A stretch of 64,000 nucleotides of DNA from an uncultured Candidatus Saccharibacteria bacterium (GTDB lineage: Bacteria > Patescibacteriota > Minisyncoccia > Phycocordibacterales > DATDWN01). The stretch lies in the NCBI GenBank assembly GCA_964426735.1, contig CAYRRP010000002.1, positions 6,582 to 70,581 on the forward strand. The letters are read 5' to 3'. This document shows, piece after piece, positions 3,368 to 58,033 of this stretch (position 1 is the stretch's first letter; the number at the start of each line of letters is the position of its first letter). Below the pieces are notes generated by a model. The model worked only from the letters and a program-made list of their open reading frames with translations. It searched no databases and was not told the origin of the DNA. The position numbers were made by a program, and so were the translations under genes.

Positions 3368-3820
3368 GTGTGGCGGGAGGAAAAAGCTATGGCAGTAACA
3401 TTACTGAGACTGTGGGACATTAACTTGAAAGGTTATAAGATTGTACGGTATTCAAATTCGTGTCCTGCAGACTTGAAATCACTCGAACCCGTCAGATTTA
3501 GCGGTGAGACCTTAGAGCACGCTCTTGCGTCAACAGAAGGTTATGATTCGACAAATTTAACCCTTATCGGTTTAGCTCGAGTTAGTAAAGAAATCAAAAA
3601 AATTCACAAGTCACAGGTACCAGATTTCTTTTTTGAGCAGCGCTGCTGGGTGCCTCGGCGGTTTATTGCGGGGGGAACCTTGTTGGTGTATAAGGGTGAG
3701 AAGTATGCACTCGCTTTTTATTTTATTGGCCATGAATGGTTCGTCCGGCCAGTAGTTCTTTCCATGAAAAATACACCGGATTACTATTTTCTGGTGGTGA
3801 AGAAGGAGGGGTCTGCATGA
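3368..3820 (+). CDS. hypothetical protein (possible start at 3389)
   Basis: 150-aa ORF with no recognised motif. The stop codon lies in the loop of the downstream hairpin. Confidence 0.4.
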   Translation: MWREEKAMAVTLLRLWDINLKGYKIVRYSNSCPADLKSLEPVRFSGETLEHALASTEGYDSTNLTLIGLARVSKEIKKIHKSQVPDFFFEQRCWVPRRFIAGGTLLVYKGEKYALAFYFIGHEWFVRPVVLSMKNTPDYYFLVVKKEGSA

Positions 3821-3836
3821 TGCAGACCCTTTTTTG
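3808..3836. terminator. terminator hairpin gggtctgca-tga-tgcagaccc + T6; convergent genes on both sides
   Basis: Perfect 9-bp stem followed by tttttt. Confidence 0.65.
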
Positions 3837-3839
3837 TTA

Positions 3840-5030
3840 TTAGCGTGTATCTTTGAGGGCAAGTGACCAGTATGTTCCAAGTATTACTGTAATTCCAAGC
3901 AGGAGGAATATGTAATTGTATGGTAAAAATCTCAGTGCGAATGTTGCAACGATAGGTCCAATAATAAAACCAAGTGGGCGAGTGGTTCGGTATATACTGA
4001 TTTCATCAGTTTGACTTTGATTTACTTGTTTAAAGAAGAAACTATCTGAGGTGATTTCAACAAAGGAAGCCCCAGTACGTGTAAGGAATAGGAGTGAAGT
4101 CCAGAGAATAAAGTTGTTGGTGGTGATGAAGCTGATGCAGATTGTTGCAAGACCCATGATTATAAGTCCTATAGTGAGTATTTCTTTCTCACCGTATTTA
4201 GTGTCAGCAAGTTTGCCGATAGGAAGCTCAAATAATGCAAATGGAAGAAGCATGATAGTAAACATAATACCGATTTGTTCCCATGAGAATCCGATATGCA
4301 TGTTCAGATGTACAGGCATATAAATAATCATAATTGCATAGAACAATTGAAGGATGAGGTGACACATGAATACTTTCGATAGGTTTGCTATTTCTATGAA
4401 TGTAACCACCGTCTCACGTACTTTAATGTGTGCAATAGGTACATCTGTATAATTTTTAAAATATCGTCTGGTGAGGATGAAGAGTGGTATAAGACAAAGG
4501 AGTGATATGAAGTACACTCGATCAAATTGATCTTTTGCTAAAATAAAACCTACAAGCATTGGTGCGATTACGAGAGTAATGTTTGCAAGGGTAAGATATG
4601 TACCTCGAATTCCACCAGTTTTTGTTTCATCGGTTGATTCACTTTCGAGGAAGACATCGAGATTGAAAAGAATAAGAGGAACGACAATTTGATGGATAAG
4701 GAAATAGATACCAATCAGTGTGGGGTTTTGTGAAAATATCAGGCCAGTTACTGCAAGAGCTTCGAGTGTGATCGCACTCAGTATAATTTTATAGTTGCCA
4801 ACTTTGTTGAGTATTTTTGATATATTGAGAAGGAGCACAAGGTTTATGAGTGACCCTATGGTGTAGAGGTTACTTACTTGATCATCGGTAAAAAAATGAG
4901 ACAGAAAGGATGAGTTTATGTAAATAATAAAGTAATAATGGAAGGATAGAAATATGTTGGCAAGATATACAACAGTGAGTAATTTATGTTGACGCACCCG
5001 TTCAGTTAATTTCGTAAGAATAAAATCCAT
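3840..5030 (-). CDS. MFS-type transporter (start taken at internal Met MDFILTK)
   Basis: About 12 hydrophobic segments. The longer ORF (to 5141) overlaps the IS transposase gene, so the internal ATG at 5030 is preferred. Confidence 0.6.
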   Translation of the reverse strand: MDFILTKLTERVRQHKLLTVVYLANIFLSFHYYFIIYINSSFLSHFFTDDQVSNLYTIGSLINLVLLLNISKILNKVGNYKIILSAITLEALAVTGLIFSQNPTLIGIYFLIHQIVVPLILFNLDVFLESESTDETKTGGIRGTYLTLANITLVIAPMLVGFILAKDQFDRVYFISLLCLIPLFILTRRYFKNYTDVPIAHIKVRETVVTFIEIANLSKVFMCHLILQLFYAIMIIYMPVHLNMHIGFSWEQIGIMFTIMLLPFALFELPIGKLADTKYGEKEILTIGLIIMGLATICISFITTNNFILWTSLLFLTRTGASFVEITSDSFFFKQVNQSQTDEISIYRTTRPLGFIIGPIVATFALRFLPYNYIFLLLGITVILGTYWSLALKDTR

Positions 5031-5127
5031 ATTTGTATAGTATAACGGAAAATGATGCTTGGACAAAACTAAGTGAGTACTACGGATCTCCCCACCATAC
5101 ACCTTTCCGGAGTTTTCCAAAAGTGTT

Positions 5128-6060
5128 TTAGGTACACACATTTGTCACCTCTAATTCTAACATTTCATTAGGTGTTTTCCCATTTAAACCACAATGTTCT
5201 AAATTGTTGTAGTACTCATTCCATGTTTTCAATTTCTCTTGCAAGTCATTCATTGATTTGAATTTGTGTTTTTCGTAGAATTTCTCTTGATCTTCTCTGT
5301 GACTTCTTTCCACTGTCCCGTTTTGTGCAGGTTTGCCAGGATCAATGAGGTAGTGAATGATATTGTGTTCTGTACAAAATGTATCAAGTCCATGGAGTGT
5401 TTTGACTGAAACATCACTTCTTTTGTTTGTTCCGAGGTAGTAGTTGGTGAACATACTTCCATTGTCTGTTTTAATTGCATGTATCTTGTACTTAAATTGC
5501 TTGATGACGTCTTCTAGAAACAAAACTGAGTGGTATGATGTCTGTTCATCATATATTGCAAGATACCTCCATCGAGAAGCTGTATCAATGGCTGTATACT
5601 GAAAATATCGTTTTCCTGCAATCTTTCCTGGTACATACTTCACATCAATCTCAATGAGTTCACCTGGTTTTCTTTCAGCTTTGATATATTTGTATTTGAT
5701 TTTCTTTACTCTGTATTTTCGTACTAAATTCTCTGATTTCAATATCTTTCCAATTGTTCTTTCGTGAATGACAACTCCTTCCTTTGCTAGTTTCCACTTT
5801 AGCTTGAGTGCACAGAGTTTAGTTTTCTTTCGGAGATCAACCACTCTCTCTTTTAGTTGAATCTGTGATTCCTTTGGATTTGTCTTTGGTCTTGTTGATT
5901 TTGGTATGAGTCCTTTCTCTCCTTTGTCACGGTATTCTTTGAGCCACCTCTTGAGGGTTCTTCCATTGTGAGGAAAGATCTTGATTACATCTTTTAGCCT
6001 AGCTCCATCCTCGACCATTTGTACCCATCTTAAACGTTCTTCTTGTATGTTTTTTGGCAT
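5128..6060 (-). CDS. DDE transposase, IS481/IS3-superfamily integrase core
   Basis: N-terminal HTH-like region followed by the catalytic DDE region (IDVKYVPG..., TDNG, VERSHRED). Confidence 0.75.
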   Translation of the reverse strand: MPKNIQEERLRWVQMVEDGARLKDVIKIFPHNGRTLKRWLKEYRDKGEKGLIPKSTRPKTNPKESQIQLKERVVDLRKKTKLCALKLKWKLAKEGVVIHERTIGKILKSENLVRKYRVKKIKYKYIKAERKPGELIEIDVKYVPGKIAGKRYFQYTAIDTASRWRYLAIYDEQTSYHSVLFLEDVIKQFKYKIHAIKTDNGSMFTNYYLGTNKRSDVSVKTLHGLDTFCTEHNIIHYLIDPGKPAQNGTVERSHREDQEKFYEKHKFKSMNDLQEKLKTWNEYYNNLEHCGLNGKTPNEMLELEVTNVCT

Positions 6061-6112
6061 ATGTGTACACATGAGTTAACTCTACTAAAAAGTGACATAT
6101 GTGTGTGCACAT
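5128..6112 (-). mobile_element. IS481-family-like insertion sequence (single DDE transposase gene, imperfect terminal IRs)
   Basis: Transposase ORF 5128-6060 has an rve-type integrase core: KTDNGSMF ... VERSHRE. Terminal IRs are gtacacacatttgtcac (5132-5148) and gtgacatatgtgtgtgcac (6092-6110, reverse complement). Length about 1 kb. Confidence 0.7.
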
Positions 6113-15786: not shown

Positions 15787-15873
15787 GGAGGATTCGTATA
15801 GCGGTCTAGTGCGCTCGCTTGGAAAGCGGGTAGGGAAGAAATTCCCTCAGGAGTTCGAATCTCCTATCCTCCG
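15787..15873 (+). tRNA. tRNA-Ser (anticodon GGA), class II with long variable arm
   Basis: Acceptor GGAGGAT/ATCCTCC, anticodon loop TTGGAAA, variable arm AGGGAA-GAAA-TTCCCT, T-loop TTCGAAT. No encoded CCA. Confidence 0.8.
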
Positions 15874-15891
15874 CTAAAATTCGAAGTGCTG

Positions 15892-15925
15892 GCATAAAAA
15901 TGAGGGAGTTGTTGAAACTCCCTCA
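15892..15925 (-). terminator. terminator for the minus-strand gene 15956-16276 (gagggag-N9-ctccctc, T-run on minus strand)
   Basis: Hairpin read directly. Overlaps the first copy of the 26-bp direct repeat. Confidence 0.5.
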
Positions 15926-15955
15926 CGGTCTTCTGTAACATATCCAAGGTAAGAT

Positions 15956-16276
15956 CTAGTTGAGTTTTGGGTCGAAAAACCCTATAAGAGACAGTCCTTC
16001 AGTGGACCCTTTCTCTGAAAGATGTGCGAGCACTCTGATTTTTTCAGTTTCAGCTTCGACATCAGTCTCGAAGGTCTGAATAAACTTTTTTTGTTCTCCG
16101 CAGTGTTCGGGTTGTGGCGATGCTCCAAGAAAATATTTGAAATTAGATCCGTTCTCACGAACGTGGATACCAATCGCAAAATTTCCTCTCTTTAAAACTT
16201 CTCTACAAACCTTACATCCCTGAACGATACCCTCCGGATGCTCTACGACCAACACTTCACATTCATTATTTTTCAT
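15956..16276 (-). CDS. hypothetical protein
   Basis: 106 aa with several Cys (CKVCREV..., EHCGEQ). No recognised family. Confidence 0.4.
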   Translation of the reverse strand: MKNNECEVLVVEHPEGIVQGCKVCREVLKRGNFAIGIHVRENGSNFKYFLGASPQPEHCGEQKKFIQTFETDVEAETEKIRVLAHLSEKGSTEGLSLIGFFDPKLN

Positions 16277-16406
16277 AACGCTTTCCTTTTGGTTTGAAAT
16301 GAACTACTTCACTGAATTGAGTATAGCTGGGACAAAAGCATAAGTGAAGTTTTATATCAAATAAATAATATTTGTATCTTTTTGTTATATATGATATTTT
16401 TTTATT

Positions 16407-17051
16407 ATGATCAAAATAAACGATGTAGTTCAGTATATTTTATATAAAGACGAAGAAGCTCTCACCGCTCTGGCAAAGGGTTATATGAATTTATCTAAAT
16501 ATGCTAAACAAATTCAGGGGGAAGTTAGGGAAAAATCAAAAAAAGAAGTGGGTATTCCGGGGATTGTAGTTTCGTTATCTCGTCTAGCCCAAAAAACCAA
16601 TTCTAAGCATCCACTGATCCAAGATGTTCAAATAAAAAATATTACAACAAAAACTCCTCTTTCAGAGATTGTGTACAGTAAGACCACTGAATCAATCTCA
16701 AAACTTTCCAAAATATACGACAAAGCTAAAACTGGTGCTGATGATTTTTTCACAATAACACTCTCTACAAATGAAATTACAGTTATCTGTAGTGATAGAA
16801 TAAAAGCAGAAATTGAGAGAACACTAAAAGAAAAGCCAGTAATGACTGTAAAAAATCTTGCTTCTATTGGTCTGTCTATCGATCCAAAATACTATCCAAT
16901 GCCAAATATAACCTATTCCTTAATTAGAAGAATCGCACAAAAGAGAATACCCTTGGCAGAAACTATTACTACCCGCACAGAAATTATTTTTGTGTTTGAA
17001 CAAAAATATTTAGCTGAGATGGTTGATTTGTTCATTGTTAAAGAAAACTAG
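16407..17051 (+). CDS. hypothetical protein
   Basis: 214-aa ORF with no recognised motif. Confidence 0.4.
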   Translation: MIKINDVVQYILYKDEEALTALAKGYMNLSKYAKQIQGEVREKSKKEVGIPGIVVSLSRLAQKTNSKHPLIQDVQIKNITTKTPLSEIVYSKTTESISKLSKIYDKAKTGADDFFTITLSTNEITVICSDRIKAEIERTLKEKPVMTVKNLASIGLSIDPKYYPMPNITYSLIRRIAQKRIPLAETITTRTEIIFVFEQKYLAEMVDLFIVKEN

Positions 17052-17214
17052 CCGTCCATCAAAGAACCAGAAAAACCAAAGTTCGAAGTGTTGGCATAAA
17101 AATGGTAGAAAGGGAATTTCTGACCCAAATGAACTTGAAAGGTACATAATAAATATTTACAAAACACTACTCACGCGTGGTATAAAAGGCACTTATGTTT
17201 ATGTTGTTGATTAA
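17023..17214 (+). pseudogene. C-terminal remnant of a DUF2075-like (Schlafen/RecD-like ATPase family) gene
   Basis: The 63-aa ORF ends ...TLLTRGIKGTYVYVVD, which resembles the conserved C-terminal signature of DUF2075 proteins. No upstream body exists, and the second copy of the 26-bp direct repeat lies inside it. Confidence 0.35.
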
Positions 17215-17313
17215 AATTTAAGAAATTGTTTAAACCAAGTTGTAAATAAAACCTCGATCTCAATTCAAAAAGAAATTACTCCAGGAATAATAAAATCTCC
17301 ATATGTTGGTGAA

Positions 17314-17694
17314 ATGGTTAGTGTTCCATTGGTTGGGTCTGCGCCTTGTGGGGAACCACTTTTGGGAGAAAGTAATATTGAGGAAATGATACAAGTCGAA
17401 AAAAACAAAATTAAACCCGGGACCAAATATTTTATTGTTAGAGCTAGTGGAGATTCCATGAATAAAGCGGGAATAGATGATGGTGGTCTTGTTCTCTGTC
17501 GGTATGCTGAAAAAGGGGAAACTGGTGATAGAGTCGTTGCATTACTTGGTGGTGAAAATGTAACGATAAAATATTATGATAAGAAGGATGGTCGTAGAAT
17601 TTTGTTGCCAAAAAGTACCAACCCCGATCATCAGCCGATTGTCCCAGAAGAAGGAGATACTGTTCAAGGTGTAGTTCAGGAAATTTTGAAATAA
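17314..17694 (+). CDS. umuD: S24 family peptidase, UmuD-like (no DNA-binding domain)
   Basis: 126 aa with VRASGDSMNKAGIDDGGLVLC (catalytic Ser in GDSM) and a downstream Lys. There is an in-frame stop 72 nt upstream, so no LexA-type HTH. Confidence 0.7.
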   Translation: MVSVPLVGSAPCGEPLLGESNIEEMIQVEKNKIKPGTKYFIVRASGDSMNKAGIDDGGLVLCRYAEKGETGDRVVALLGGENVTIKYYDKKDGRRILLPKSTNPDHQPIVPEEGDTVQGVVQEILK

Positions 17695-17852
17695 ATTTTA
17701 ACACAGCCATGTATGATTCGAGACTTTTGTTGGATATTATAAATAGTGGCTTACCCTGTCTTCCTGGCTAAATCTCCCTGTCCCCGCAAAATCGTGATAG
17801 TACGAGATAAGTCTAAAAAAGGCCCCAATTGAGTGCTTTTTAAACTTGATAA

Positions 17853-18986
17853 ATGTATGATGAGTTTATGGCAAAATGCATCTACTGCTTAAAAGATGAG
17901 ATAGGGACAACTTTTCTAAGCAGGGAACATGTTATTCCTCAGTCTTTTGGCACTTTTACCCCGTTAAATCCAAATATAAAAGGTGATGTTGTCTGCGATA
18001 GTTGTAATACAAAAATCCTAAGTCCTCTGGAAACTAATTTCATTGAAGATTCAATGGAGGGTTTTTTCGCACAACGATTAAATCTGAACAATAGAAACAG
18101 TATCACAATGAGAAATGGAAACTTTAAGATTGATACAGATAGCGGTTTTGGTCATGATTTCTTTAATCAAATGGTTTTTCCACTTAAACCAGAAAACGAT
18201 AAGCTCGTTCCTTATCCAAAAACTCAAATAAAATTTCGAGGGCTCGGAGGTCAATCTTGTCGAGTGTTCTTTCCAGAAGCACTAAAACAAATCAAAAAAG
18301 ACTCAAAAGAGTTTTTGAAACTTTCTGCTGACATGAAGAAACTAAGTCAAAAAGATCTCTGTATTTTCGCTGAGACGCATGAGGATATGAATGAGGTCGT
18401 CGTACTTTTAAAGGAGTACGGTGTGATTTACAACGAAAAAGAGCGTTATCACAAACCTTTTGAAGAAGGTGTGAAGTACGAATTGTCAGAAGACTATTCT
18501 TGTACAGTAAATCATAATATTGGTCGTGTCCTAGCAAAGATTGCACTGAATTATTTTGTGTATTGTTGTATACAAGACAGTCAAAAATCACTTCTGCTAT
18601 TGCCAGGTTTTGATCCAATAAGAAACTATATATTTAAAGGGGATGGAAAAATGCGAGACTTCATTGTTTCTGTTAATGAGAAGCCTATTACTTATTATGA
18701 AAATGAAAATGATGAGAGGATCATTTCGCATATCATTAATTTTATTGAAGAAAATGGAATGGTTGTTGCAAGAATGACATTCTTTGGTTGTCCTGCAATC
18801 TACAAAATTATTTTAGGTGAGATGCCAAACGGAATACCTGTCAAAAACTTTGGGTGTGGGCATTTATTCGATCCTTTTTCAAAAAGAATTATCAATATGG
18901 CAAATAAACCCACGCCAGAGGAGCTAACTTCTGAACAAGTGAGGGTAACTTTCGGTATACAAAAAAGATATCGTTTTGGCACATAA
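17853..18986 (+). CDS. HNH-motif nuclease domain protein with large unknown C-terminal region
   Basis: N-terminal KCIYCL...SREHVIPQSFG...DVVCDSCN gives the CxxC...(E)H...N...CxxC HNH signature. The remaining 280 aa or so are unrecognised. Confidence 0.55.
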   Translation: MYDEFMAKCIYCLKDEIGTTFLSREHVIPQSFGTFTPLNPNIKGDVVCDSCNTKILSPLETNFIEDSMEGFFAQRLNLNNRNSITMRNGNFKIDTDSGFGHDFFNQMVFPLKPENDKLVPYPKTQIKFRGLGGQSCRVFFPEALKQIKKDSKEFLKLSADMKKLSQKDLCIFAETHEDMNEVVVLLKEYGVIYNEKERYHKPFEEGVKYELSEDYSCTVNHNIGRVLAKIALNYFVYCCIQDSQKSLLLLPGFDPIRNYIFKGDGKMRDFIVSVNEKPITYYENENDERIISHIINFIEENGMVVARMTFFGCPAIYKIILGEMPNGIPVKNFGCGHLFDPFSKRIINMANKPTPEELTSEQVRVTFGIQKRYRFGT

Positions 18987-19055
18987 TGATCGGGTTTTTG
19001 AAGGTACTCTAAAAAAGTAGATTGCAAATTCGCCTGTAAACCTTATGATGAAAGA

Positions 19056-19964
19056 GTGAAAAAGCGTCACCACACCGTGCCGAGATGTTACCTAGAAAAC
19101 TTCACTGACCATGATGGTTTTGTTTGGGTTTTGGATACAAAAGACAATATATTCCGTATTAAGCCTGAAAATATTCTCCTTGAAAATCACTTCTACACTA
19201 TCACACTCAAGGACGGTGAAAAGAGCTTCGTAGTTGAAGATACTCTGGCCAATATTGAAGGAGCGTACATTGCAATCTTTCAGAATAAAATTGAAAAAGA
19301 GCTTCCTCTTACTGATGAAGAAAGAGCAAGAGTTGCTGTTTTTATAGCTGCGCTTTATATAAGAACTTCACCGTATAGAGAGGGTCTTCGCAGTGCGTTT
19401 GGAACGCTCAGAAGGGGTATGGAAGATTGGAAAAAGCAGTTTGAGACAATGAGTAAAGAATCGAAAAGGGCTATGGCTGCTATCCAATCTTCCGGCAAAG
19501 ATGAATTAATCAGTATTGATGATTTGGATAAGTACTTAGAGAATTTTAATGAACATCATTCTGTAAACGTGATTGAACAGTTGCCTGAGATTGCCCAAAT
19601 CATATTTGATATGAAGTGGGCTATCTGGAGAGATATTAATAGTAATTTTGTTACAAGCGATGATCCTGTTGTGCTTTTGCGGCCAGAGTCAATTAAAAAA
19701 TATGGAGCAAATGCAATTGGTAGCAAACCAGGGCTTCTTTATAAAGATACTGAGTTAACACTTCCTCTATCGAAAGATAGATTGCTTTTAGCAGGATGGA
19801 TACTGAACAAAAATTCTTATATAGATGTTCCTGATGATATTGTCCGGAGGATAAACCACAGAACGATAACAGGATCTTCAGATAGAATTATTACTAAATC
19901 TCAAAAGGATGCTGAAACAATAAGAGATAAATATACCGAAACTGTAAATAAGACAGAAAAATGA
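19056..19964 (+). CDS. DUF4238-like protein
   Basis: The N-terminus MKKRHHTVPRCYLENFTD matches, from memory, the HHxVPxxYLxxF start of the DUF4238 family. Confidence 0.45.
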   Translation: MKKRHHTVPRCYLENFTDHDGFVWVLDTKDNIFRIKPENILLENHFYTITLKDGEKSFVVEDTLANIEGAYIAIFQNKIEKELPLTDEERARVAVFIAALYIRTSPYREGLRSAFGTLRRGMEDWKKQFETMSKESKRAMAAIQSSGKDELISIDDLDKYLENFNEHHSVNVIEQLPEIAQIIFDMKWAIWRDINSNFVTSDDPVVLLRPESIKKYGANAIGSKPGLLYKDTELTLPLSKDRLLLAGWILNKNSYIDVPDDIVRRINHRTITGSSDRIITKSQKDAETIRDKYTETVNKTEK

Positions 19965-20632
19965 ATGATGAATTTCTGCAAAAAAGAATAGCTGAAACAA
20001 AACACGAAATCTTTCCAATTGACAGGCTTTTATCATTGGAAAGCGTCTACCTCATATTCCAAGAAGAATACGTGAAGGTTGAAGATAAAAATCTTTTATT
20101 CAAAGATTCTAAATATCAGCGCTTGCGAGAAGGTTACTTTTCGATGTTTGTTGCCGTTTCTCTTCAAGATAACTCGGTTTCGAGGAAAAGGCACTATCTT
20201 ATTTTCCCCTCAGATCCTAGTAACGATGTCTATATTAGCTACAGATTGAATGAGGAGAAAGAGTCGATACCGAAGTTAATAGCCTACGAATTTGATATTA
20301 AAGAATATACGAACTGGTCGCTAAACTTTGAAGAATTCACCAAGAAAAGTATAATTCCAAAAATTGGTATCTATAATATCGCTATACCCATTTATAGAAA
20401 AATGGACGGACAGGATCTGCAGTTGTTGGTCGATTATTTGAAAGCAAACAAGCTCATAAGAAGAATATGGATACTCGGACTCCCATCAGATACCGTGAAA
20501 AATTATGATATTTCTGATGTAACTATTGTTGATAAAGACGGTATTATTTATCATAAGACGATAAACCTAAGTGAATGGATAGATAAAACCGAAGTGCCTA
20601 TAATTTTTCAAGATATCATTAGGTTTAAATAA
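19961..20632 (+). CDS. hypothetical protein, translationally coupled to preceding gene
   Basis: ATGA start/stop overlap. 223 aa with no recognised motif. Confidence 0.45.
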   Translation: MNDEFLQKRIAETKHEIFPIDRLLSLESVYLIFQEEYVKVEDKNLLFKDSKYQRLREGYFSMFVAVSLQDNSVSRKRHYLIFPSDPSNDVYISYRLNEEKESIPKLIAYEFDIKEYTNWSLNFEEFTKKSIIPKIGIYNIAIPIYRKMDGQDLQLLVDYLKANKLIRRIWILGLPSDTVKNYDISDVTIVDKDGIIYHKTINLSEWIDKTEVPIIFQDIIRFK

Positions 20633-20771: not shown

Positions 20772-22010
20772 GTAGGTGTGTCAAAGAACAGAGTAATTTT
20801 TCATATGGATGGGGATGCTTTTTTTGTTGGATGTGAGGTGGCAAAAAATCCAAAACTAAAAGGTCTTCCTGTTGTCACCGGGCAGGAGCGCGGGATTGTT
20901 TCTGCGCTTTCATACGAAGCCAAAGCACTTGGCATAATCCGTGGTATGCCTATTTTTCGCGTAAAGAAAAATTTCCCAAACGTTTTAGTGTTGCCAGGTG
21001 ACTATGCGTCCTATGTCATGTATTCAGAAAAAATGTTTGATATTGTGCGCCGGTATGCAGACGATGTGGAGGAATACAGTATAGACGAATGTTTTGCAGA
21101 CCTGACAGGGCTCGACAGACCGCTCCATATGACATACACACAAATAGCCGAGAGAATTAAAAAAGAAGTAGTGGCAGAACTCGGACTTTCGGTTTCTGTC
21201 GGACTCGCTCCGACAAAAGTTTTAGCAAAAGTTGCATCGAAATGGAAAAAACCAGATGGACTTACGGTGATTGACTTAGGACATATAACACAGTTTCTGA
21301 CAGAGACACCGATAGGTAAAATCTGGGGTATAGGGCCACGCACCGCAGAGCGTTTACAGAGATTGGGGATAAAAACAGCGGGAGACTTTGCCGGCAAAGA
21401 TATGACGTGGGTCAAAAATAATTTATCTAAACCATATATAGAAATATGGATGGAGTTAAATGGGGTGTGCGTACACCACGTCGACCCAAACCCAAAAACA
21501 ACATATTCCTCGGTGCAGAAAACGAGAACTTTTTATCCGACAACAAACGACAAGGTTTTTCTCCTTTCGCAGATATCCAAACATACAGAGGAGGCTTGTC
21601 GTAAAGCGAGACACTACAACCTCGTTCCCAAAAAATTTTCTTTCTTTTTGAAAAGTCATGATTTTACATATTATTCACACACAGTAGTGTTAGAGGTACC
21701 TACACATGCACCAGAAACGTTGGTCAGTATCGCACGGTCTCACCTCGACAAAGCTTGGCGTCCAGGTGTGCAGTTTCGGACCACAGGCGTGACTCTTTCA
21801 GAACTCGAGCCCGAGGGTGTAAAACAAGGTGACTTGTTTGGTGCGATTGAAAAAGCAACAAAGTTTGAGATCATACACAAACAAATAGATAGTCTAGAAA
21901 AAAAGTTTGGTAAAGGTGTAGTGCATCTCGGCAGTACAGACAAAGCAATAAAAAACAGAACCCTCGGTACCGACTCGGACGATCTTTCTCGCGACTTGCT
22001 GTTTTTGTAA
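20748..22010 (+). CDS. umuC: Y-family DNA polymerase (UmuC/DinB-like); start codon uncertain (GTG 20748, GTG 20778 or later)
   Basis: VIFHMDGDAFFVGCEV is the h-h-D-x-D-x-F-F-a-x-x-E palm motif. A little finger domain follows. Confidence 0.8.
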   Translation: MNECSLYNVGVSKNRVIFHMDGDAFFVGCEVAKNPKLKGLPVVTGQERGIVSALSYEAKALGIIRGMPIFRVKKNFPNVLVLPGDYASYVMYSEKMFDIVRRYADDVEEYSIDECFADLTGLDRPLHMTYTQIAERIKKEVVAELGLSVSVGLAPTKVLAKVASKWKKPDGLTVIDLGHITQFLTETPIGKIWGIGPRTAERLQRLGIKTAGDFAGKDMTWVKNNLSKPYIEIWMELNGVCVHHVDPNPKTTYSSVQKTRTFYPTTNDKVFLLSQISKHTEEACRKARHYNLVPKKFSFFLKSHDFTYYSHTVVLEVPTHAPETLVSIARSHLDKAWRPGVQFRTTGVTLSELEPEGVKQGDLFGAIEKATKFEIIHKQIDSLEKKFGKGVVHLGSTDKAIKNRTLGTDSDDLSRDLLFL

Positions 22011-22044
22011 GAGAGTATCTGCACCAGGAAACTGGTCATCTGGC
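21987..22044. repeat. 58-bp direct repeat, copy 1 (last 8 codons of umuC-like gene plus 34 bp downstream)
   Basis: tctcgcgacttgctgtttttgtaagagagtatctgcaccaggaaactggtcatctggc. Copy 2 is at 23058-23115, with a single mismatch. Confidence 0.85.
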
Positions 22045-22093
22045 ACTGATTATTAGTGTCGCTGACTGTTGCTATTTTTAAATAAGGTTACCA

Positions 22094-22122
22094 TTGACAT
22101 AACGCTATCCGTATGCTAAGAT
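22094..22122 (+). promoter_or_regulatory. consensus promoter TTGACA-17-TAAGAT upstream of GC-rich gene, with SD aaggag 8 nt before ATG 22198
   Basis: Sequence read directly. Confidence 0.55.
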
Positions 22123-22197
22123 AGCGCAGGATTCATGAGCTATTTCTGGCTCAAAAAATGCATATTCCCAAACCCAAACGAAAGAAGGAGACAAGCT

Positions 22198-22932
22198 ATG
22201 GCAACCGATGGTCCTGATCCCGCACCCTGTAAGCCTGATATTCTCAAGAAAGGCAGGGGTGTCTGTGTCCTCGACGGTAGTTCCAACGCTGTAGAGCGTT
22301 GGGTACAGTCTGTCGCTAAGAAAGCTAACGCTCAAGTCGACTGGCATTACAGTGGTGGACGAGCGAACGTTCTGCATCTCGGTGACGACACAAGTCGTCA
22401 GCGCGTTCTGAACGCAATCAGTGAGCTCAGAGGTGAACTCAAAGGTCGGATTCTCAGCGTCGACGGTCCTGCCCTCTATAGTAACGATATCGAAGATCCC
22501 GAAGCAAGCGGCGCAGTCGTTCGTGAAGTCGACGGCCAACTGGTGCTCGATGATCCGATCGCCGTCGCGGTGATCAGGGTGGTGGAGAAACACAACTGCC
22601 GTAACACACTGGAACTGAACGCCGATCGCGTCAAGCACTTCAAGCGTCGGCTGACGGAGCGTGGCATGACTCCAGATCAAGCGGTGATCGTTCTCCTGAA
22701 CGTCGACGACGTTCACGGCGGTCCGCTCGCGAACGCTCTGATGCCCGGACACAACTGGCAGGAAATCCGTGACAAGGGAGAAGTCCCTTTCGCGCGAGGA
22801 CTCGCCATGCGAGACGGCATTCAGAAAGCGCTCGGTGCTTTCGACAAGGACGCCGCGACGAAGTTGCAGAGCATCAGCGACGTAGCTGTCGTGGTAGTTG
22901 ACCACGGTGTCGCCGAAGTATTCGCGGCCTAA
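22198..22932 (+). CDS. hypothetical protein encoded by a GC-rich (foreign-composition) insert
   Basis: 244 aa. Strong third-position G/C bias in this frame, and a good SD and promoter. The antisense ORF 22105-23043 is judged an artefact of GC richness. Confidence 0.55.
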   Translation: MATDGPDPAPCKPDILKKGRGVCVLDGSSNAVERWVQSVAKKANAQVDWHYSGGRANVLHLGDDTSRQRVLNAISELRGELKGRILSVDGPALYSNDIEDPEASGAVVREVDGQLVLDDPIAVAVIRVVEKHNCRNTLELNADRVKHFKRRLTERGMTPDQAVIVLLNVDDVHGGPLANALMPGHNWQEIRDKGEVPFARGLAMRDGIQKALGAFDKDAATKLQSISDVAVVVVDHGVAEVFAA

Positions 22933-23057
22933 CCGCAAAACTTCGCAATGGCACAATGGGCGCACGACCTTCGGGTACGTGCGCCTTTTCTTATACCACA
23001 TCCAATGAACGAAGCCACAGAGTTTAGAGTAACCATCAGACACGGAGAGGAAGCGTC

Positions 23058-23115
23058 TCTCGCGACTTACTGTTTTTGTAAGAGAGTATCTGCACCAGGA
23101 AACTGGTCATCTGGC
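23058..23115. repeat. 58-bp direct repeat, copy 2
   Basis: Identical to 21987-22044 except one base (g/a). Confidence 0.85.
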
Positions 23116-23189
23116 GGGGTATTGTGTTTAATATGAAAAAACTCCTGTATGGAGTGGGAGTTTTTTCATGAGAGAAAATAGTGAGGTGT

Positions 23190-23804
23190 TTACTTGATTG
23201 TTGGCGGTTGTATGCCAGCATCATCGAGGAGTTTTTTTGCTTCATCCATCTTGCCTTGTTTGATCAGTGTACGAGCTTGTTTCATTACCTCTTTTTGCGC
23301 ATCAGTGAGATTTGCAAAACGTGGGTGAGCTCCTTCTACAAAGAGACCTTTGTATTCTGGAATTTTAATACCCGCATCGGTCAGCAACTTCTTTGCTTCC
23401 TCAGGTTTTCCAGCATCAGTGAGAGCTTTTGCTTGCTTTAGTGTTTCTTTTTGTGCATCAGTGAGGTTCTGGAAAAAACCTTTCATATGTTCATGGTCTG
23501 GTTTTTTTAAACCAAGCTCAGTCATGATTTTTTCTGCACCTGCCTTATCACCATTTTTACGAAGTGTATGAGCTTCGACGAGTTTGTTGAATATAGCCTC
23601 AGTAATTTCGATATCGTCAAATCGTGGATGGGTCGAAGTGAGTGTTTTAAATGTTGCATAATCACCTGAGTCGAGAGCGCTTTCAAATGCTTCTCTGTTT
23701 GGTCGATTTTTATTTGTGGTTGGATTACTTGCAGCGCTTACCAAAAAAGGGAGTGATGCTGCGCCAACAAAAACCAGTGTCATAAGAGCTTTTCTTTTTT
23801 TCAT
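23190..23804 (-). CDS. secreted protein with tandem about 40-aa helical repeats
   Basis: Signal peptide MKKRKALMTLVFVGAASLPFLVSAAS. Repeated NLTDAQKE(T/V)(L/M)KQA(K/R)(A/T)L...GK..EAKKLL(T/D)DAGI units. Confidence 0.5.
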   Translation of the reverse strand: MKKRKALMTLVFVGAASLPFLVSAASNPTTNKNRPNREAFESALDSGDYATFKTLTSTHPRFDDIEITEAIFNKLVEAHTLRKNGDKAGAEKIMTELGLKKPDHEHMKGFFQNLTDAQKETLKQAKALTDAGKPEEAKKLLTDAGIKIPEYKGLFVEGAHPRFANLTDAQKEVMKQARTLIKQGKMDEAKKLLDDAGIQPPTIK

Positions 23805-24001
23805 GGTAGTTATAACTTTCATATGTGGCAAATTTATTTGTCGAGCCGCAGTAAAATAGAGTAAACTATATTTTCTTTGCTCTTCGCTGACTTTGCTCAA
23901 ATCTGAAAGTTCTCATTAATAAGTAAGTAATATGTTTGTTGGATGATCACTTCCAACATATACTCATACGTCTATGAAAAAAATTTCTTTCACGATATTT
24001 G

Positions 24002-26815: not shown

Positions 26816-27394
26816 TTACGTGCGGCGCCGGAGTGCTGCGATGCCGATGAGCCCTGCGCCCATGAGGACGAAGGACATCGGTTCGGGTACCTGGGATGTC
26901 ATGTTACCTGACCATGCAACGGTGGTGTCGGGGTTGTATCCACCAGCGTACTGAGCTGATATTGCCCCGGTGACAACTGTCGGGTCGAAACCATTCCCTG
27001 TAACTGTGCCGGTGAACGCGGCCGACAGAAAGTCAACCCCGCCTGGTAGACTCGTGAGTACCCAGACATTCGCCCCTTGCCAGGAGGTCACATCGACGGT
27101 GAATCCGTTGAAAGTGAGAAAGCCTGGCATCGGGATGTTGCCGAGGATGTTGGTTGCGGTTCCGCCGCTCCCGAGGGAGCTGCTGAAATCGCCGGTAGCC
27201 GGGGTTACGACAGTGAACGACGGGGTACCGATGAAGGTACCACTGTTCATGTTATTGATTTTGATGTTCGCCACCGGTGAGCCGAAGTTCACCGTGCCGT
27301 AGATTGGTGCGGCGGTTGCCGCCGGTGAGAAGAGGCCGAAGCCAATGACTGCGATCATGGCCAGGAGGCCATTTTTTAAAAAGTTTTTTACCAC
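26816..27394 (-). CDS. PEP-CTERM sorting-domain secreted protein
   Basis: Signal peptide. C-terminus VPEPMSFVLMGAGLIGIAALRRRT (PEP motif + TM + basic tail). GC-rich. Confidence 0.7.
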   Translation of the reverse strand: MVKNFLKNGLLAMIAVIGFGLFSPAATAAPIYGTVNFGSPVANIKINNMNSGTFIGTPSFTVVTPATGDFSSSLGSGGTATNILGNIPMPGFLTFNGFTVDVTSWQGANVWVLTSLPGGVDFLSAAFTGTVTGNGFDPTVVTGAISAQYAGGYNPDTTVAWSGNMTSQVPEPMSFVLMGAGLIGIAALRRRT

Positions 27395-27592: not shown

Positions 27593-28378
27593 TTACGCGC
27601 CGTTGTGATGACGGCGCCGGAAGAGCGCAATGCCGACAAGGCCTGCGCCCATGAGGACGAGGGTTATCGGTTCAGGGACTCCAGTTTGTTGGTCGGGTGG
27701 ACCTTGCATTACTACAAACGCCTTGTTAGCCGCGTTATTGCCGGACGCCATGTTGCTGGTTCCGTCGAAGAACACGAGTTCCCAAATGGTGCTGGGGACG
27801 AATGCTACCACATCACCGACTCCGTTGGTCGGATCGAGGATGCTGTAGAGCACGTTCGGTACTGACGGGTCACGCCAGTACATATTAAGGAGTCCTTCGA
27901 GGAGGGAAATTCTGACTACCAGTTCAGCGGAGTTTGACCCACTGTTTTGTTGAAACCTAAACCCAGCTGCGCCACCAGCATTGGTACCAAAGTATTGGCT
28001 GTTGGCCGGCGTCCAGTTTGGACTGGTCGAACTGCCCGTGAACCCTCCAGTTCCGTAGGCGTAGCTGGCTAAGTTCATGATTTGTGTACTGTACGGAGAG
28101 TTCCCGTCCAGATACGGCAGACCGTCTTGGTTGGGTGTAAACCCGGGTTGCCAAGATCCTACGGTATTACCTGACCCGATGAGGCCGAAGTTCCCGGTCA
28201 TCAGAATGGTCATGCTTGTGTAGGTGCACGCGTTTGCAATTGCACAGAGCTGAGGTAGAGCTTGAGCTCCAACCAAAAGCGGACTGTTGTTGGTGTACGG
28301 CGCCGCCTGCAGGGAGCAGGTGAGTGCCGTAGTGATAAGAAGAATGGCAAATGCCATCTTCTGGTTTTTGATAAACAT
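27593..28378 (-). CDS. PEP-CTERM sorting-domain secreted protein (paralog); start taken at MFIKNQKMAFAILL
   Basis: C-terminus GVPEPITLVLMGAGLVGIALFRRRHHNGA. GC-rich. Confidence 0.7.
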   Translation of the reverse strand: MFIKNQKMAFAILLITTALTCSLQAAPYTNNSPLLVGAQALPQLCAIANACTYTSMTILMTGNFGLIGSGNTVGSWQPGFTPNQDGLPYLDGNSPYSTQIMNLASYAYGTGGFTGSSTSPNWTPANSQYFGTNAGGAAGFRFQQNSGSNSAELVVRISLLEGLLNMYWRDPSVPNVLYSILDPTNGVGDVVAFVPSTIWELVFFDGTSNMASGNNAANKAFVVMQGPPDQQTGVPEPITLVLMGAGLVGIALFRRRHHNGA

Positions 28379-28529
28379 ACTACATCTCCAACGTCGTTGA
28401 ATTGAGGCGTTCATCGCCTCGTTTTGTCTGCCGGAAACCTTAGCACACCTCTTTGTGTATGTAAATAGACTTATTGACAAAGTTATATATAAATAGTAGT
28501 GTTGTTTTCAATTAATAATAGAGGATTAT

Positions 28530-56384: not shown

Positions 56385-56427
56385 AGTTTTTTGTTTGATA
56401 AACTAGTTTAGTTAAACGTGAAATATG

Positions 56428-56503
56428 CCACTTTAGCTCAGTTGGTAGAGCAGCCGTTTTGTAAACGGCAGGTCGTCAGTTCAAGCCTGACAAGTGGCTC
56501 CAG
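56428..56503 (+). tRNA. tRNA-Thr (anticodon UGU), CCA encoded
   Basis: GCCACTT acceptor, D-loop AGTTGGTA, anticodon loop TTTGTAA, T-loop TTCAAGC, then T-CCA. Confidence 0.85.
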
Positions 56504-58033
56504 AACCTGACTTTCTTCAGGAATCACGGAGGATGCGTGGGCTCGCTGTAAATAGACCCAAGGATTATCGCTAGGATTTAGAACATGGTTTGGGGAAATC
56601 GGCGCGATGACGCGCAAGGTTTTGTTTTGGAGAAGGAGGTTCGAGCCAAAGACTTTTTTGGCAGCGACCTTTTTATGCAAAAGGTCGCAATCCAATGCGA
56701 TTTTTTCCATATCCACGGCCTCTTTTATCCATTTTTGCATCGGTTCGAGCCAATGATTCTGCTTTTGTTCTATGGAAGATATTTCCTCCTCCAGTGACTT
56801 TTTCTCGGATAGCAATTTAGCTTTTTCACAACGATAGACTTCCTTATCAATATCCTGTTCCAAGTATCCGTCCAAAAGTCGCTGGAGCTTAACCGAAATA
56901 TCTTTTATCCTTTTTTGATTTTTTTCTACAAAAGCAGAAACAGATTGGGCGGAGTTTGTTCTATCATGTTCTAATTTGGTATTCAAATAGTCCGCCCAAT
57001 CTTTCGGCATAGAAACTTTTTGAAGTAAAGAGGAAATTTGCGCGTCTAATGATTCCTGGCGAACACAGGGTTCAGGACACTTCATATCTTTCCGTTTCTT
57101 AGTGCAGTGATAATACGTATAGAAGTGTTCCTGACCGTTCAACTGCTTTTTAACCCTGTATTCGCCAGTAATCATCATTCCACAAGACGCGCAGGTTATA
57201 AGTCCGCAGAATACCTGAGGCTGATTTTTCTGCTTGAAACGCGGACGGCTTTTTTGCTTCAAAATTTCCTGAACTCTATCAAAAAGTTTCTTTGACACGA
57301 TTGGCTCATGATTGCCTTCGTGAATTTCTCCAGCGTATCTGAAGTGTCCGTAGTAAAAGGGGTTAGAGAGTATAAATGTCGCTCGGGAGATGTGAATTCT
57401 CTGTCCGATCTTTGTGATGAGGCGGTTTTGCTCCAAAAAGACCCCAATTCGTTCGAGCGTTTGATCGCCCTTAGAATACATCTCAAACGCTTGGCGAATC
57501 ACAGGCGCTTGCTTCCTATCTACTACAACAGTCTTAGACCGTGAATCGTTCAAATACCCGATAGGAGCAAGCGACGGATATTCGCCACGACGAACTTTTT
57601 GGCGCAAACCGCGCTTAGTGTTCTCGGACAGGGAATCCACATAGTATTTGCTCTGCCCGAAAGCGATACTTAACATAAATTTACCCTGTGGCGTGGACTC
57701 AAACCAAAAGCTGGGGAATTTCAAACCGACGATTACACTTGTATCAAGCAAATATATTATTCTTCCACCATCAACAGAATTACGAGCGAGACGGTCTGGA
57801 TGCCAAGAGAGAATAGAGTCTGCTTCGCCCGCTTCAATTTGTAAAAGCATATCGTTAAACATTGGTCTGCCAGGAATTTTGGCACTTTGCTTTTCAATAA
57901 ACTCGCGAGCGATATCCAAACCTTCTCTCTTGGCAAAGTCGCGTAACTCTTGCAACTGTGCCTCGATGGATAATATTTGCTTGTCCTCTACGTCGGTTGA
58001 TTTGCGTGCATACAAAAAGAATTTTTGAGCCAT
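56438..58033 (-). CDS. large serine recombinase (resolvase catalytic domain + recombinase domain + zinc ribbon + coiled coil); 3' end uncertain because the ORF reads through IR-L and antisense tRNA-Thr
   Basis: N-terminus FLYARKSTDVEDKQILSIEAQ (catalytic Ser), ...DRLARN..., zinc ribbon CGLITCASCG...YYHCTKKRKDMKCPEP. Confidence 0.8.
   Translation of the reverse strand: MAQKFFLYARKSTDVEDKQILSIEAQLQELRDFAKREGLDIAREFIEKQSAKIPGRPMFNDMLLQIEAGEADSILSWHPDRLARNSVDGGRIIYLLDTSVIVGLKFPSFWFESTPQGKFMLSIAFGQSKYYVDSLSENTKRGLRQKVRRGEYPSLAPIGYLNDSRSKTVVVDRKQAPVIRQAFEMYSKGDQTLERIGVFLEQNRLITKIGQRIHISRATFILSNPFYYGHFRYAGEIHEGNHEPIVSKKLFDRVQEILKQKSRPRFKQKNQPQVFCGLITCASCGMMITGEYRVKKQLNGQEHFYTYYHCTKKRKDMKCPEPCVRQESLDAQISSLLQKVSMPKDWADYLNTKLEHDRTNSAQSVSAFVEKNQKRIKDISVKLQRLLDGYLEQDIDKEVYRCEKAKLLSEKKSLEEEISSIEQKQNHWLEPMQKWIKEAVDMEKIALDCDLLHKKVAAKKVFGSNLLLQNKTLRVIAPISPNHVLNPSDNPWVYLQRAHASSVIPEESQVLEPLVRLELTTCRLQNGCSTN
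56499..56706. repeat. left inverted repeat (IR-L) of the serine-recombinase element; begins inside tRNA-Thr 3' end (ctcca); carries a 45-bp insertion (56646-56690) that forms a perfect 10-bp hairpin
   Basis: The reverse complement of 58063-58226 matches 56499-56645 and 56691-56706 with zero mismatches. Confidence 0.85.

Follow-up and report, generated by a model that had tools for sequence, protein, structure and literature searches.

A GC-rich single-gene cassette between duplicated polymerase gene ends in a Saccharibacteria genome: a probable case of insertion with long target duplication

We analyzed the DNA around the 3' end of a Y-family DNA polymerase gene in a 64,000-nucleotide (nt) stretch of the genome of an uncultured, ultra-small Candidatus Saccharibacteria bacterium (GCA_964426735.1, contig CAYRRP010000002.1), hereafter referred to as the window, and compared it with other loci (numbered with the prefix L). 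The end of the polymerase gene occurs twice, as a 58-nt direct repeat, and the 1013 nt between the copies (22045-23057) contain one real gene, which encodes a 244-amino-acid (aa) protein (Table 1). The first-pass annotation had placed the repeats at exactly these coordinates and described them as the last 24 nt of a umuC-like coding sequence plus 34 nt downstream; both points were confirmed. The copies are identical at 57 of 58 positions, the only mismatch (G/A at repeat position 11) being synonymous (TTG/TTA, Leu) in the polymerase tail, and their longest perfectly identical part is 47 nt. The 64 kb contain no other long near-perfect direct repeat, and this one has two copies only, so that the probability of a chance origin is negligible. 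The polymerase frame is open from 20748 and its ATG lies at 20805; an exact look-up of the open reading frame (ORF) taken from 20748 gave no record, and homologues of 401 aa begin with MDGDAFF and bear the source name DNA polymerase IV. The last 24 nt of the gene make up the coding portion of the left repeat, and relatives have the same C-terminus (...SRDLLFL and stop). The 58-nt repeat folded no better than shuffled sequence (z = 0.35) and contained no inverted repeat or hairpin beyond chance and no arm-type structure. The native terminator of the locus is now parted from the polymerase gene by the insertion.

The coding sequence of the insert differs clearly in composition from the rest of the window. 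Its GC content of 0.571 (window mean = 0.400, sd = 0.038, z = 4.5) is the highest of all 735-nt intervals, and it is among the top tetranucleotide outliers. The earlier statement that the insert is far GC-richer than its surroundings was therefore upheld in these respects, but islands with a GC content of 0.53-0.57 lie 3.7 kb away, and the third codon positions, described as almost all G/C, have a GC content (GC3) of only 0.60 (GC1 = 0.71, GC2 = 0.40; polymerase GC3 = 0.40). Two tandem GC-rich genes at 26816-27394(-) and 27593-28480(-) (GC = 0.57 and 0.53 in a 0.40-GC genome) encode proteins with PEP-CTERM sorting signals; their terminators and 3' ends resemble each other over stretches of 34 and 68 nt, and no target duplication was seen flanking them.

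The near-consensus promoter and Shine-Dalgarno sequence claimed at first pass are both present. All homologues of the 244-aa protein begin with MATDGP and are of about the same length, which supports the start at 22198. The hairpin module in the 5' untranslated region (UTR) occurs in all close copies of the cassette, and the terminator is kept in distant family members, including stand-alone genes for the C-terminal domain. The 49-nt leader is common only to the syntenic sister locus L084 (80% identity); the idea that it duplicates the native leader, so that the target duplication would amount to ~107 nt, was rejected because the alignment was no better than with shuffled sequence. An antisense ORF of 312 aa (22105-23043(-)) that spans the cassette was rejected as a gene and attributed to the GC-rich sense frame. 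There was no significant Rfam match on the insert or related loci, no terminal inverted repeat of the insert, and no inverted repeat in 22933-23115 besides the terminator, including no imperfect palindrome of the attC type (RYYYAAC...GTTRRRY).

Table 1. Positions of the features of the polymerase locus, the cassette and the nearest recombinase genes in the window
Feature	Position	Strand	Details
IS481-like transposase	5128-6072	-	HTH_28/HTH_32 + rve
Y-family DNA polymerase gene (PolIV/UmuC-like)	20805-22010	+	401 aa; Pfam IMS, IMS_C, IMS_HHH
Left repeat copy	21987-22044	+	24 nt of coding sequence including stop, plus 34 nt of native 3' flank
AT-rich leader	22045-22093	+	49 nt, GC 0.33; between left repeat and conserved cassette
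Cassette promoter	22094-22122	+	TTGACA-17-TAAGAT, 10/12 matches, TG before -10
Conserved 5'-UTR module	22128-22152	+	AGGATT..GAGCT(loop)GGCTC, small 5' hairpin; seen in fold
Shine-Dalgarno sequence	22185-22190	+	AAGGAG, 7 nt before ATG; conserved in homologous loci
Coding sequence of cassette	22198-22932	+	244-aa two-domain protein
Intrinsic terminator	22958-22992	+	GGGCGCACG..CGTGCGCC, then T-run
Conserved 3' tail of cassette	22993-23057	+	truncated in window
Right repeat copy	23058-23115	+	non-functional duplicate of polymerase 3' end and flank
Native bidirectional terminator	23136-23166	.	between polymerase locus and convergent gene 23190-23900(-)
Large serine recombinase	56427-58033 (gene 56438-58033)		overlapping/abutting tRNA-Thr

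Comparison with two relatives, L097 and L084, revealed the history of the locus. The polymerase genes of the three lineages are 92.5-94% identical at the nucleotide level and nearly equidistant (L097 versus the window, 92.5%). In L097, which was found through its polymerase homologue, there is a single copy of the gene end and its 34-nt flank, after which come a native leader and a gene of 76 aa, with no cassette; the repeat is therefore derived from the target. The non-coding part of the L097 match is only ~65-70% identical to the repeat. As judged from its sequence, L097 is an empty-site allele with one repeat copy and no insert, of the kind that the first-pass annotation had proposed looking for in relatives. 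Scans of Joint Genome Institute metagenomes aimed at empty sites, using the polymerase 3' end and the downstream terminator, gave 0 matches.

L084 contains the polymerase gene, the flank, the 49-nt leader, the cassette and a second gene-end copy that matches its own left copy at 26 of 30 positions and then breaks off. This is followed by ~600 nt with a NUDIX gene, by the native leader and 76-aa gene seen in L097, and then by the terminator of the window, which is thus kept downstream of the extra genes. The window has the same order up to the cassette, followed by a full second gene end with its flank and by the terminator, and its left repeat copy is orthologous to the single copy of L097 and the left copy of L084. 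Third-codon-position identity between the window and L084 was similar for the cassette (0.861) and the polymerase (0.844), indicating that the two have diverged together and that the insertion predates the split of these lineages. The insertion is thus not recent. The 244-aa gene is under purifying selection, as the identities of the cassette coding sequence to L084 at the three codon positions show (0.96/1.00/0.86).

These comparisons, together with assembly data, also bear on whether a GC-rich contig of another organism was spliced in at a shared k-mer. The foreign composition of the insert would fit such an artefact, as would short unitigs that break at the repeat: L061 (k = 31, 1085 nt, from another run) corresponds to window 22015-23099 and carries the exact 244-aa protein, and L062 (k = 31, from an independent run) begins at 23086. 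However, these break points are the ones expected for a true 47-nt exact repeat, which argues that the repeat was not created by assembly. In L084 the repeats are too diverged to act as a graph repeat, and a single 7.6-kb unitig (k = 31) crosses the polymerase gene, the cassette and the downstream genes. Given also the joint divergence of cassette and polymerase and the presence of the protein family inside long contigs of the candidate phyla radiation (CPR) in 53 genomes, an assembly artefact is extremely improbable.

The region past the polymerase gene varies far beyond these three lineages. More distant polymerase relatives (83-86% aa identity; L090 and L091-96) have the same C-terminus but completely different DNA from the first base past the stop codon, and the polymerase gene end was not found in them a second time. 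The 3' flank of the polymerase gene is thus a hypervariable hotspot and not a dedicated attachment (att) site; the polymerase 3' end as a general att site was rejected on the basis of L090 and L091, which lack a duplicated gene end. A secreted 147-aa protein with a GC3 of 0.76-0.80 is encoded near the polymerase gene in L090 (5256-5699(-)) and L091 (6293-6736(-)), in genomes of 0.3-0.4 GC, and constitutes another GC-rich single-gene island in this hotspot. In addition, L090 contains the same footprint with different cargo: an exact 20-nt repeat (6732-6751/8548-8567) that holds the last 19 nt, including the stop codon, of a Peptidase_M10 gene brackets a GC-rich insert of 1.8 kb encoding a 530-aa alpha/beta-hydrolase-like protein. 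This instance supports the generality of the footprint.

The two repeat copies are under concerted evolution. At repeat positions 28-30 both window copies read AGT and both L084 copies read GAT. The homogenisation could stem from gene conversion, from recent RecA-mediated re-integration of a molecule carrying the cassette plus one repeat, or from cycling by a recombinase. The last 13 nt of the window repeat and the following GGGG match the 3' half of the terminator hairpin of the 76-aa gene in L084, and the right repeat copy may have originated as a deletion hybrid whose sequence was then transferred to the left copy. A related scenario has a single original event, after which a circle or linear fragment with cassette and repeat re-entered relatives by transformation and Campbell-type, RecA-dependent recombination through the 58-bp homology. 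It would account for the contrast in repeat identity between the window (57/58) and L084 (26/30), for the lineage-specific homogenisation at positions 28-30, and for the near-equidistance of the lineages, which fits recombining populations. However, a homology of 58 bp is barely long enough for efficient RecA recombination, the first duplication is left unexplained, and the same data fit plain gene conversion. Competence and homologous recombination have been reported for Patescibacteria (PMC12455944), and we nevertheless regard spread by this route as rather unlikely.

Copies of the cassette at other loci revealed how its limits behave. Window 22094-23059 was matched at 89-91% nucleotide identity in two other contexts with unrelated flanks (L001-5/L088-89, after a 345-aa gene, and L085-87), and the shared unit comprises the promoter, the 5'-UTR hairpin module, the Shine-Dalgarno sequence, the coding sequence, the terminator and the tail. 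Its left limit lies 0-17 nt from the -35 hexamer in all three contexts, and its right limit varies (L001 coordinates 2885, 2909 and at least 3168). The cassettes of the window and L084 end with ...GGAAGCG(C/T)C, whereas L001, L088 and L085 run on with TCGGTCGCCGTGAGG...; their tail reads GGAAGCGCCTC up to the point of the window cut and GGTCGCCGTGAGG... beyond it, and L001 and L085 are homologous for at least 283 nt past the window cassette end. This longer shared tail indicates that the window copy was cut inside a larger conserved unit, and the variable right limit together with the unrelated flanks indicates that the cassette is mobile and has no fixed ends. A rolling-circle (HUH) origin, suggested by the fixed left and variable right end, had no structural or sequence support.

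Several further features were observed at these loci. The 283-nt extension (L001 2886-3168 and its L085 counterpart), missing in the window copy, includes a long inverted repeat (AAAACCAAAAATTTCCTT...AAGGAAATTTTTTGGTTTT). The L085 cassette is part of a GC-rich block of 2.2 kb with a 62-nt repeat on either side. Within this block (L085 745-1700) are three tandem copies of a ~38-nt unit (CTGAAAGAGATCTAAAAGGGTACCTGACCCCCTTAACC) and a non-coding stretch of ~300 nt that runs from a promoter-like site to a terminator hairpin; it had no Rfam match and may be an undescribed RNA gene. In L006 the cassette (3815-5292) directly follows a tRNA-Ala gene, and the promoter and 5'-hairpin module recur (25 nt exact) before the next gene, an unrelated 127-aa ORF with no assigned family.

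Both junctions of the window insert show microhomology, of 2-9 nt overall. At the right junction, the donor (...GCGCC-TC-GGTCGCC), the target (...ATCTT-TC-TCGCGAC) and the product (...GCG(C/T)C-TC-TCGCGAC) share 2-3 nt, and at the left junction the insert starts with ACTGATTAT, which matches at 8 of 9 positions the native L097 flank that follows the duplicated segment (ACTGAGTAT). No recombinase gene lies in or beside the insert, whose sole real ORF encodes the 244-aa protein; the nearest recombinases in the window are the IS481-like transposase, 16 kb off, and the large serine recombinase, 33 kb off. Neither IS481-like transposases nor serine recombinases/integrases are known to leave 58-bp identities. 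No tyrosine integrase or IntI was seen among the ORFs of the window, which were partly inspected by eye and not all scanned.

Cis-mobilizable elements (CIMEs) are integrase-less, att-flanked elements that are mobilised in trans, and the window insert could be an element of this CIME- or satellite-like kind, with the 58 nt as attL and attR and a recombinase encoded elsewhere in the genome, or by a helper phage or island, moving a 1071-bp circle. The repeat includes a gene 3' end and leaves the gene intact, as is typical of integrases; cycles of excision and integration would explain near-identical copies despite an old insertion; an insert-free allele with one copy exists; and the k = 31 de Bruijn graph fits a circle plus an empty site as well as the integrated form, the two being inseparable from the graph alone. 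Large serine recombinases adjoin tRNA genes in two CPR genomes, the window (tRNA-Thr) and L006 (6928-8420, tRNA-Val). Contigs of ~1 kb carrying the gene were uninformative as evidence of circles, the median contig of the collection being ~1 kb. Against this explanation, no att-like core or sequence is common to cassette copies at different sites or to their repeats, the right end is cut off within a longer conserved unit, the repeat is structureless, and polymerase relatives with other inserts have no duplicated gene end. Beside family members, no recombinase family was found among 25 listed of the 133 matched families. Movement by a recombinase supplied in trans is therefore unlikely.

Taken together, these results make it probable, with moderate confidence, that an illegitimate 'insertion with long target duplication' took place and that its repeats were later homogenised by gene conversion or repeat-mediated re-integration. 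As part of this explanation, 22045-23057 is probably a horizontally acquired, self-contained expression cassette with a single gene that travels among Patescibacteria genomes. The foreign DNA would have been taken up, probably by natural transformation, and illegitimate recombination at microhomologies would have joined it into the intergenic DNA just past the polymerase gene, without the action of an att-specific recombinase or of one encoded by the element. The 58-nt duplication would have arisen by fill-in of a widely staggered break or by a template switch that re-copied the target; gene conversion or repeat-mediated re-integration would later have re-equalised the copies, and recombination between them could delete the cassette precisely. 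We infer the enzymology of insertion, the entry by transformation and the gene conversion. Patescibacteria are reported to be competent by means of ComEC and pili (PMC12455944), and pilin-like genes are present in the window. With respect to the first-pass annotation, a foreign insertion at the polymerase 3' end with duplicated target and no recombinase of its own was thus corroborated, and its site-specific alternative was not, in view of the unrelated flanks, the lack of a shared core, the truncated right end, the structureless repeat and the single gene ends of relatives. The suggestion of a new kind of small insertion cassette stood in part: the footprint has a precedent (PMC2853133), and the cargo and the host group are new.

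Several points weigh against this explanation. The mechanism of long target duplication has never been established, and the label describes the footprint more than the enzymology. Since the three lineages are nearly equidistant, L097 could represent a secondary loss rather than an ancestral empty site. The orthologous non-coding part of the repeat differs by ~30% among the window, L084 and L097, while the two window copies differ at 0 of 34 positions, so that the 57/58 identity requires one more event, gene conversion for instance, and a recombinase that still excises and re-inserts the cassette could account for it equally well. The integrase search covered 64 kb of the genome alone. In three contexts the shared cassette has the same left limit, at the -35 hexamer. 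Moreover, direct repeats of at least 20 nt flank 9 of 45 family loci compared with 6 of 750 control segments (p ~1e-10), an enrichment that could point to a dedicated mechanism. Many of these flanking repeats are promoter/leader modules duplicated before successive small genes (L006, L011, L012 with four copies, L017, L029 and L048), and these have in common, just past an extended -10, the motif GGTTCnAACATCGTCC. The L029 repeat was rejected as a tRNA 3' end, given that ARAGORN detected no tRNA, and belongs to this promoter/leader class.

The 244-aa protein, already called unrecognised at first pass, matched nothing in Pfam, NCBIfam, PHROGs, PADLOC, the PDB sequences or a PDB profile search, and family searches of this cargo matched no methylase or nuclease family. 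We found 662 homologues with 58-95% identity, nearly all of ~244 aa, and an exhaustive profile search extended the family to at least 1359 clusters at 50% identity. Among the 53 family loci in species-representative genomes, those named by taxon belong mostly to Patescibacteria/CPR, and a few bins are labelled otherwise. The family is modular: separate genes of ~100-120 aa and 145-155 aa encode residues 1-~105 and ~106-244, respectively, on their own. AlphaFold (AF2) modelled the whole protein with a predicted local distance difference test (pLDDT) score of 89, and the C-terminal domain with 95.8. The N-terminal domain model has a beta-alpha-beta-beta-alpha-beta topology, a generic ferredoxin-like fold with weak PDB matches only (Foldseek), and the alpha/beta C-terminal domain gave nothing at E < 1 in Foldseek against the PDB, the one structure comparison made. 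Family genes are nearly always GC-richer than their flanks, with GC3 values of up to 0.85 in hosts of 0.33-0.45 GC.

The 139 genes beside family members at the species-representative loci of the 53 genomes included no common partner, and guilt by association was thus abandoned as a route to the function of the family. Homologues of the C- or N-terminal domain (33-58% identity) were observed on IMG/VR contigs of 88-407 kb (L064-L070), on 'uncultured phage' records of 462 and 595 kb (LR756500.1, 113374-113727; LR756511.1, 39803-40030) and on a Microvirga ossetica plasmid (NZ_CP016621.1, 120016-120374). Given the lack of shared neighbors and the occurrence on phage and plasmid records, the 244-aa gene is a solitary accessory unit linked to mobile elements. 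An LOOT RNA (Rfam RF03000, 72.6 bits) was also found at L012 1034-1146, 3 kb upstream of a family gene.

These properties raise the question of whether the 244-aa protein, possibly with a new fold, is itself a selfish agent that makes widely staggered cuts in the target or drives its insertion in some other way. The link between the family and flanking direct repeats is statistically significant; the gene stands alone, under a promoter and terminator of its own, at many unrelated sites; its sequence is highly conserved and has stayed GC-rich within AT-rich hosts; its domains occur on huge-phage and plasmid records; and a metal site might be formed by conserved Asp, His and Cys residues. However, stand-alone genes for either domain occur in the same contexts, so that no single domain tracks the footprint, and L090 has the same footprint with different cargo. 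The protein also bears no similarity to a nuclease, recombinase or HUH fold, and the insertion has been static since before the lineage split, with a single cassette copy per window. Autonomous mobilisation is therefore very unlikely.

A broader alternative is an undescribed class of minimal mobile units in Patescibacteria, each consisting of one gene, its promoter and its terminator and lacking a recombinase. Such units would move from genome to genome and would either leave long target duplications of variable length or enter arrays of small genes delimited by repeats. Their dedicated mechanism would act through the 244-aa family or through a junction/leader motif, GGTTCnAACATCGTCC; we consider such a class doubtful. 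The motif, GGTTCnAACATCGTCC(c/a)A..CCAGC, immediately follows an extended -10 and recurs before successive small genes, family members included, in at least seven CPR genomes, at sites in L011, L012 (3002, 3384, 3880 and 4820), L016 (731), L017 (3510 and 4392), L029 (3921 and 4539), L044 (6058) and L048 (4421 and 5120). The window lacks this motif, Rfam had no match for it, and its possible roles are those of an operator, a common 5' leader and a cassette junction.

Directly upstream of the polymerase gene, a tRNA-Ser gene is followed by a block of lower GC content (15787-20632, GC = 0.31-0.36). Its genes encode a UmuD/LexA-like S24 peptidase (17314-17694), an HNH_5 protein (17853-18986), a 223-aa unknown protein and a DUF4238 protein (19056-19964) that matched PADLOC DUF4238-Pers, and relatives carry restriction-modification genes at the position of this block. 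These features suggest that 15787-20632 is likely a defence or accessory island.

How genes are gained with long target duplications is poorly understood, and nearly all documented cases involve restriction-modification genes. The non-restriction-modification cargo described here, together with the empty allele, the decayed sister copy and the L090 case, suggests that the footprint is a general outcome of foreign-DNA capture in competent, streamlined bacteria, and the empty site, the fresh-looking repeats and the decayed repeats form a natural series for study. Our analysis also brings to notice a large, strongly conserved family that is associated with mobile genetic elements and has no annotation; if this family or the junction motif were to define a dedicated cassette system, the interest would be much greater.

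The window insert shares single traits with several known systems. Like integron cassettes, it is a ~1-kb mobile one-gene unit without a recombinase, and family members occur in small-gene arrays with repeated spacers in some CPR genomes (L012 and L048); in contrast to integron cassettes, it has its own promoter and terminator and a target-derived repeat, and no attC, IntI or attI. As with insertion sequences (IS) and miniature inverted-repeat transposable elements (MITEs), the target is duplicated on both sides of the insert, but the duplication is 58 nt rather than a fixed 2-14 nt, the right end varies, and there are no terminal inverted repeats and no transposase. CIMEs likewise are small inserts between direct repeats at a gene 3' end that lack their own recombinase, whereas the copies of the present cassette have no constant ends or att core, the right end is truncated, and no cognate integrase was seen in 64 kb. 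Insertion with long target duplication was reportedly described by Nobusato et al. in 2000. In the cases analyzed by Furuta, Abe & Kobayashi (2010; PMC2853133), the duplications of 30 to >400 bp are variable, unique and often overlap a gene 3' end, with several repeats of 46-47 bp (e.g., 46 bp overlapping 15 bp of a gene); mobility genes are absent, a related genome carries the repeat once and lacks the insert, and the hosts are mostly naturally competent. The cargo of these published cases consists of restriction-modification genes, which were a screening criterion and whose DNA breakage was proposed as the cause (PMC2853133). The window differs in its single gene of another kind, its Patescibacteria host, the age of the insertion and its homogenised repeats; it agrees in having a unique, target-derived repeat longer than 30 bp that overlaps a gene 3' end, an insert of different GC content with no transposase or integrase, a relative with a single copy and a competent host group.

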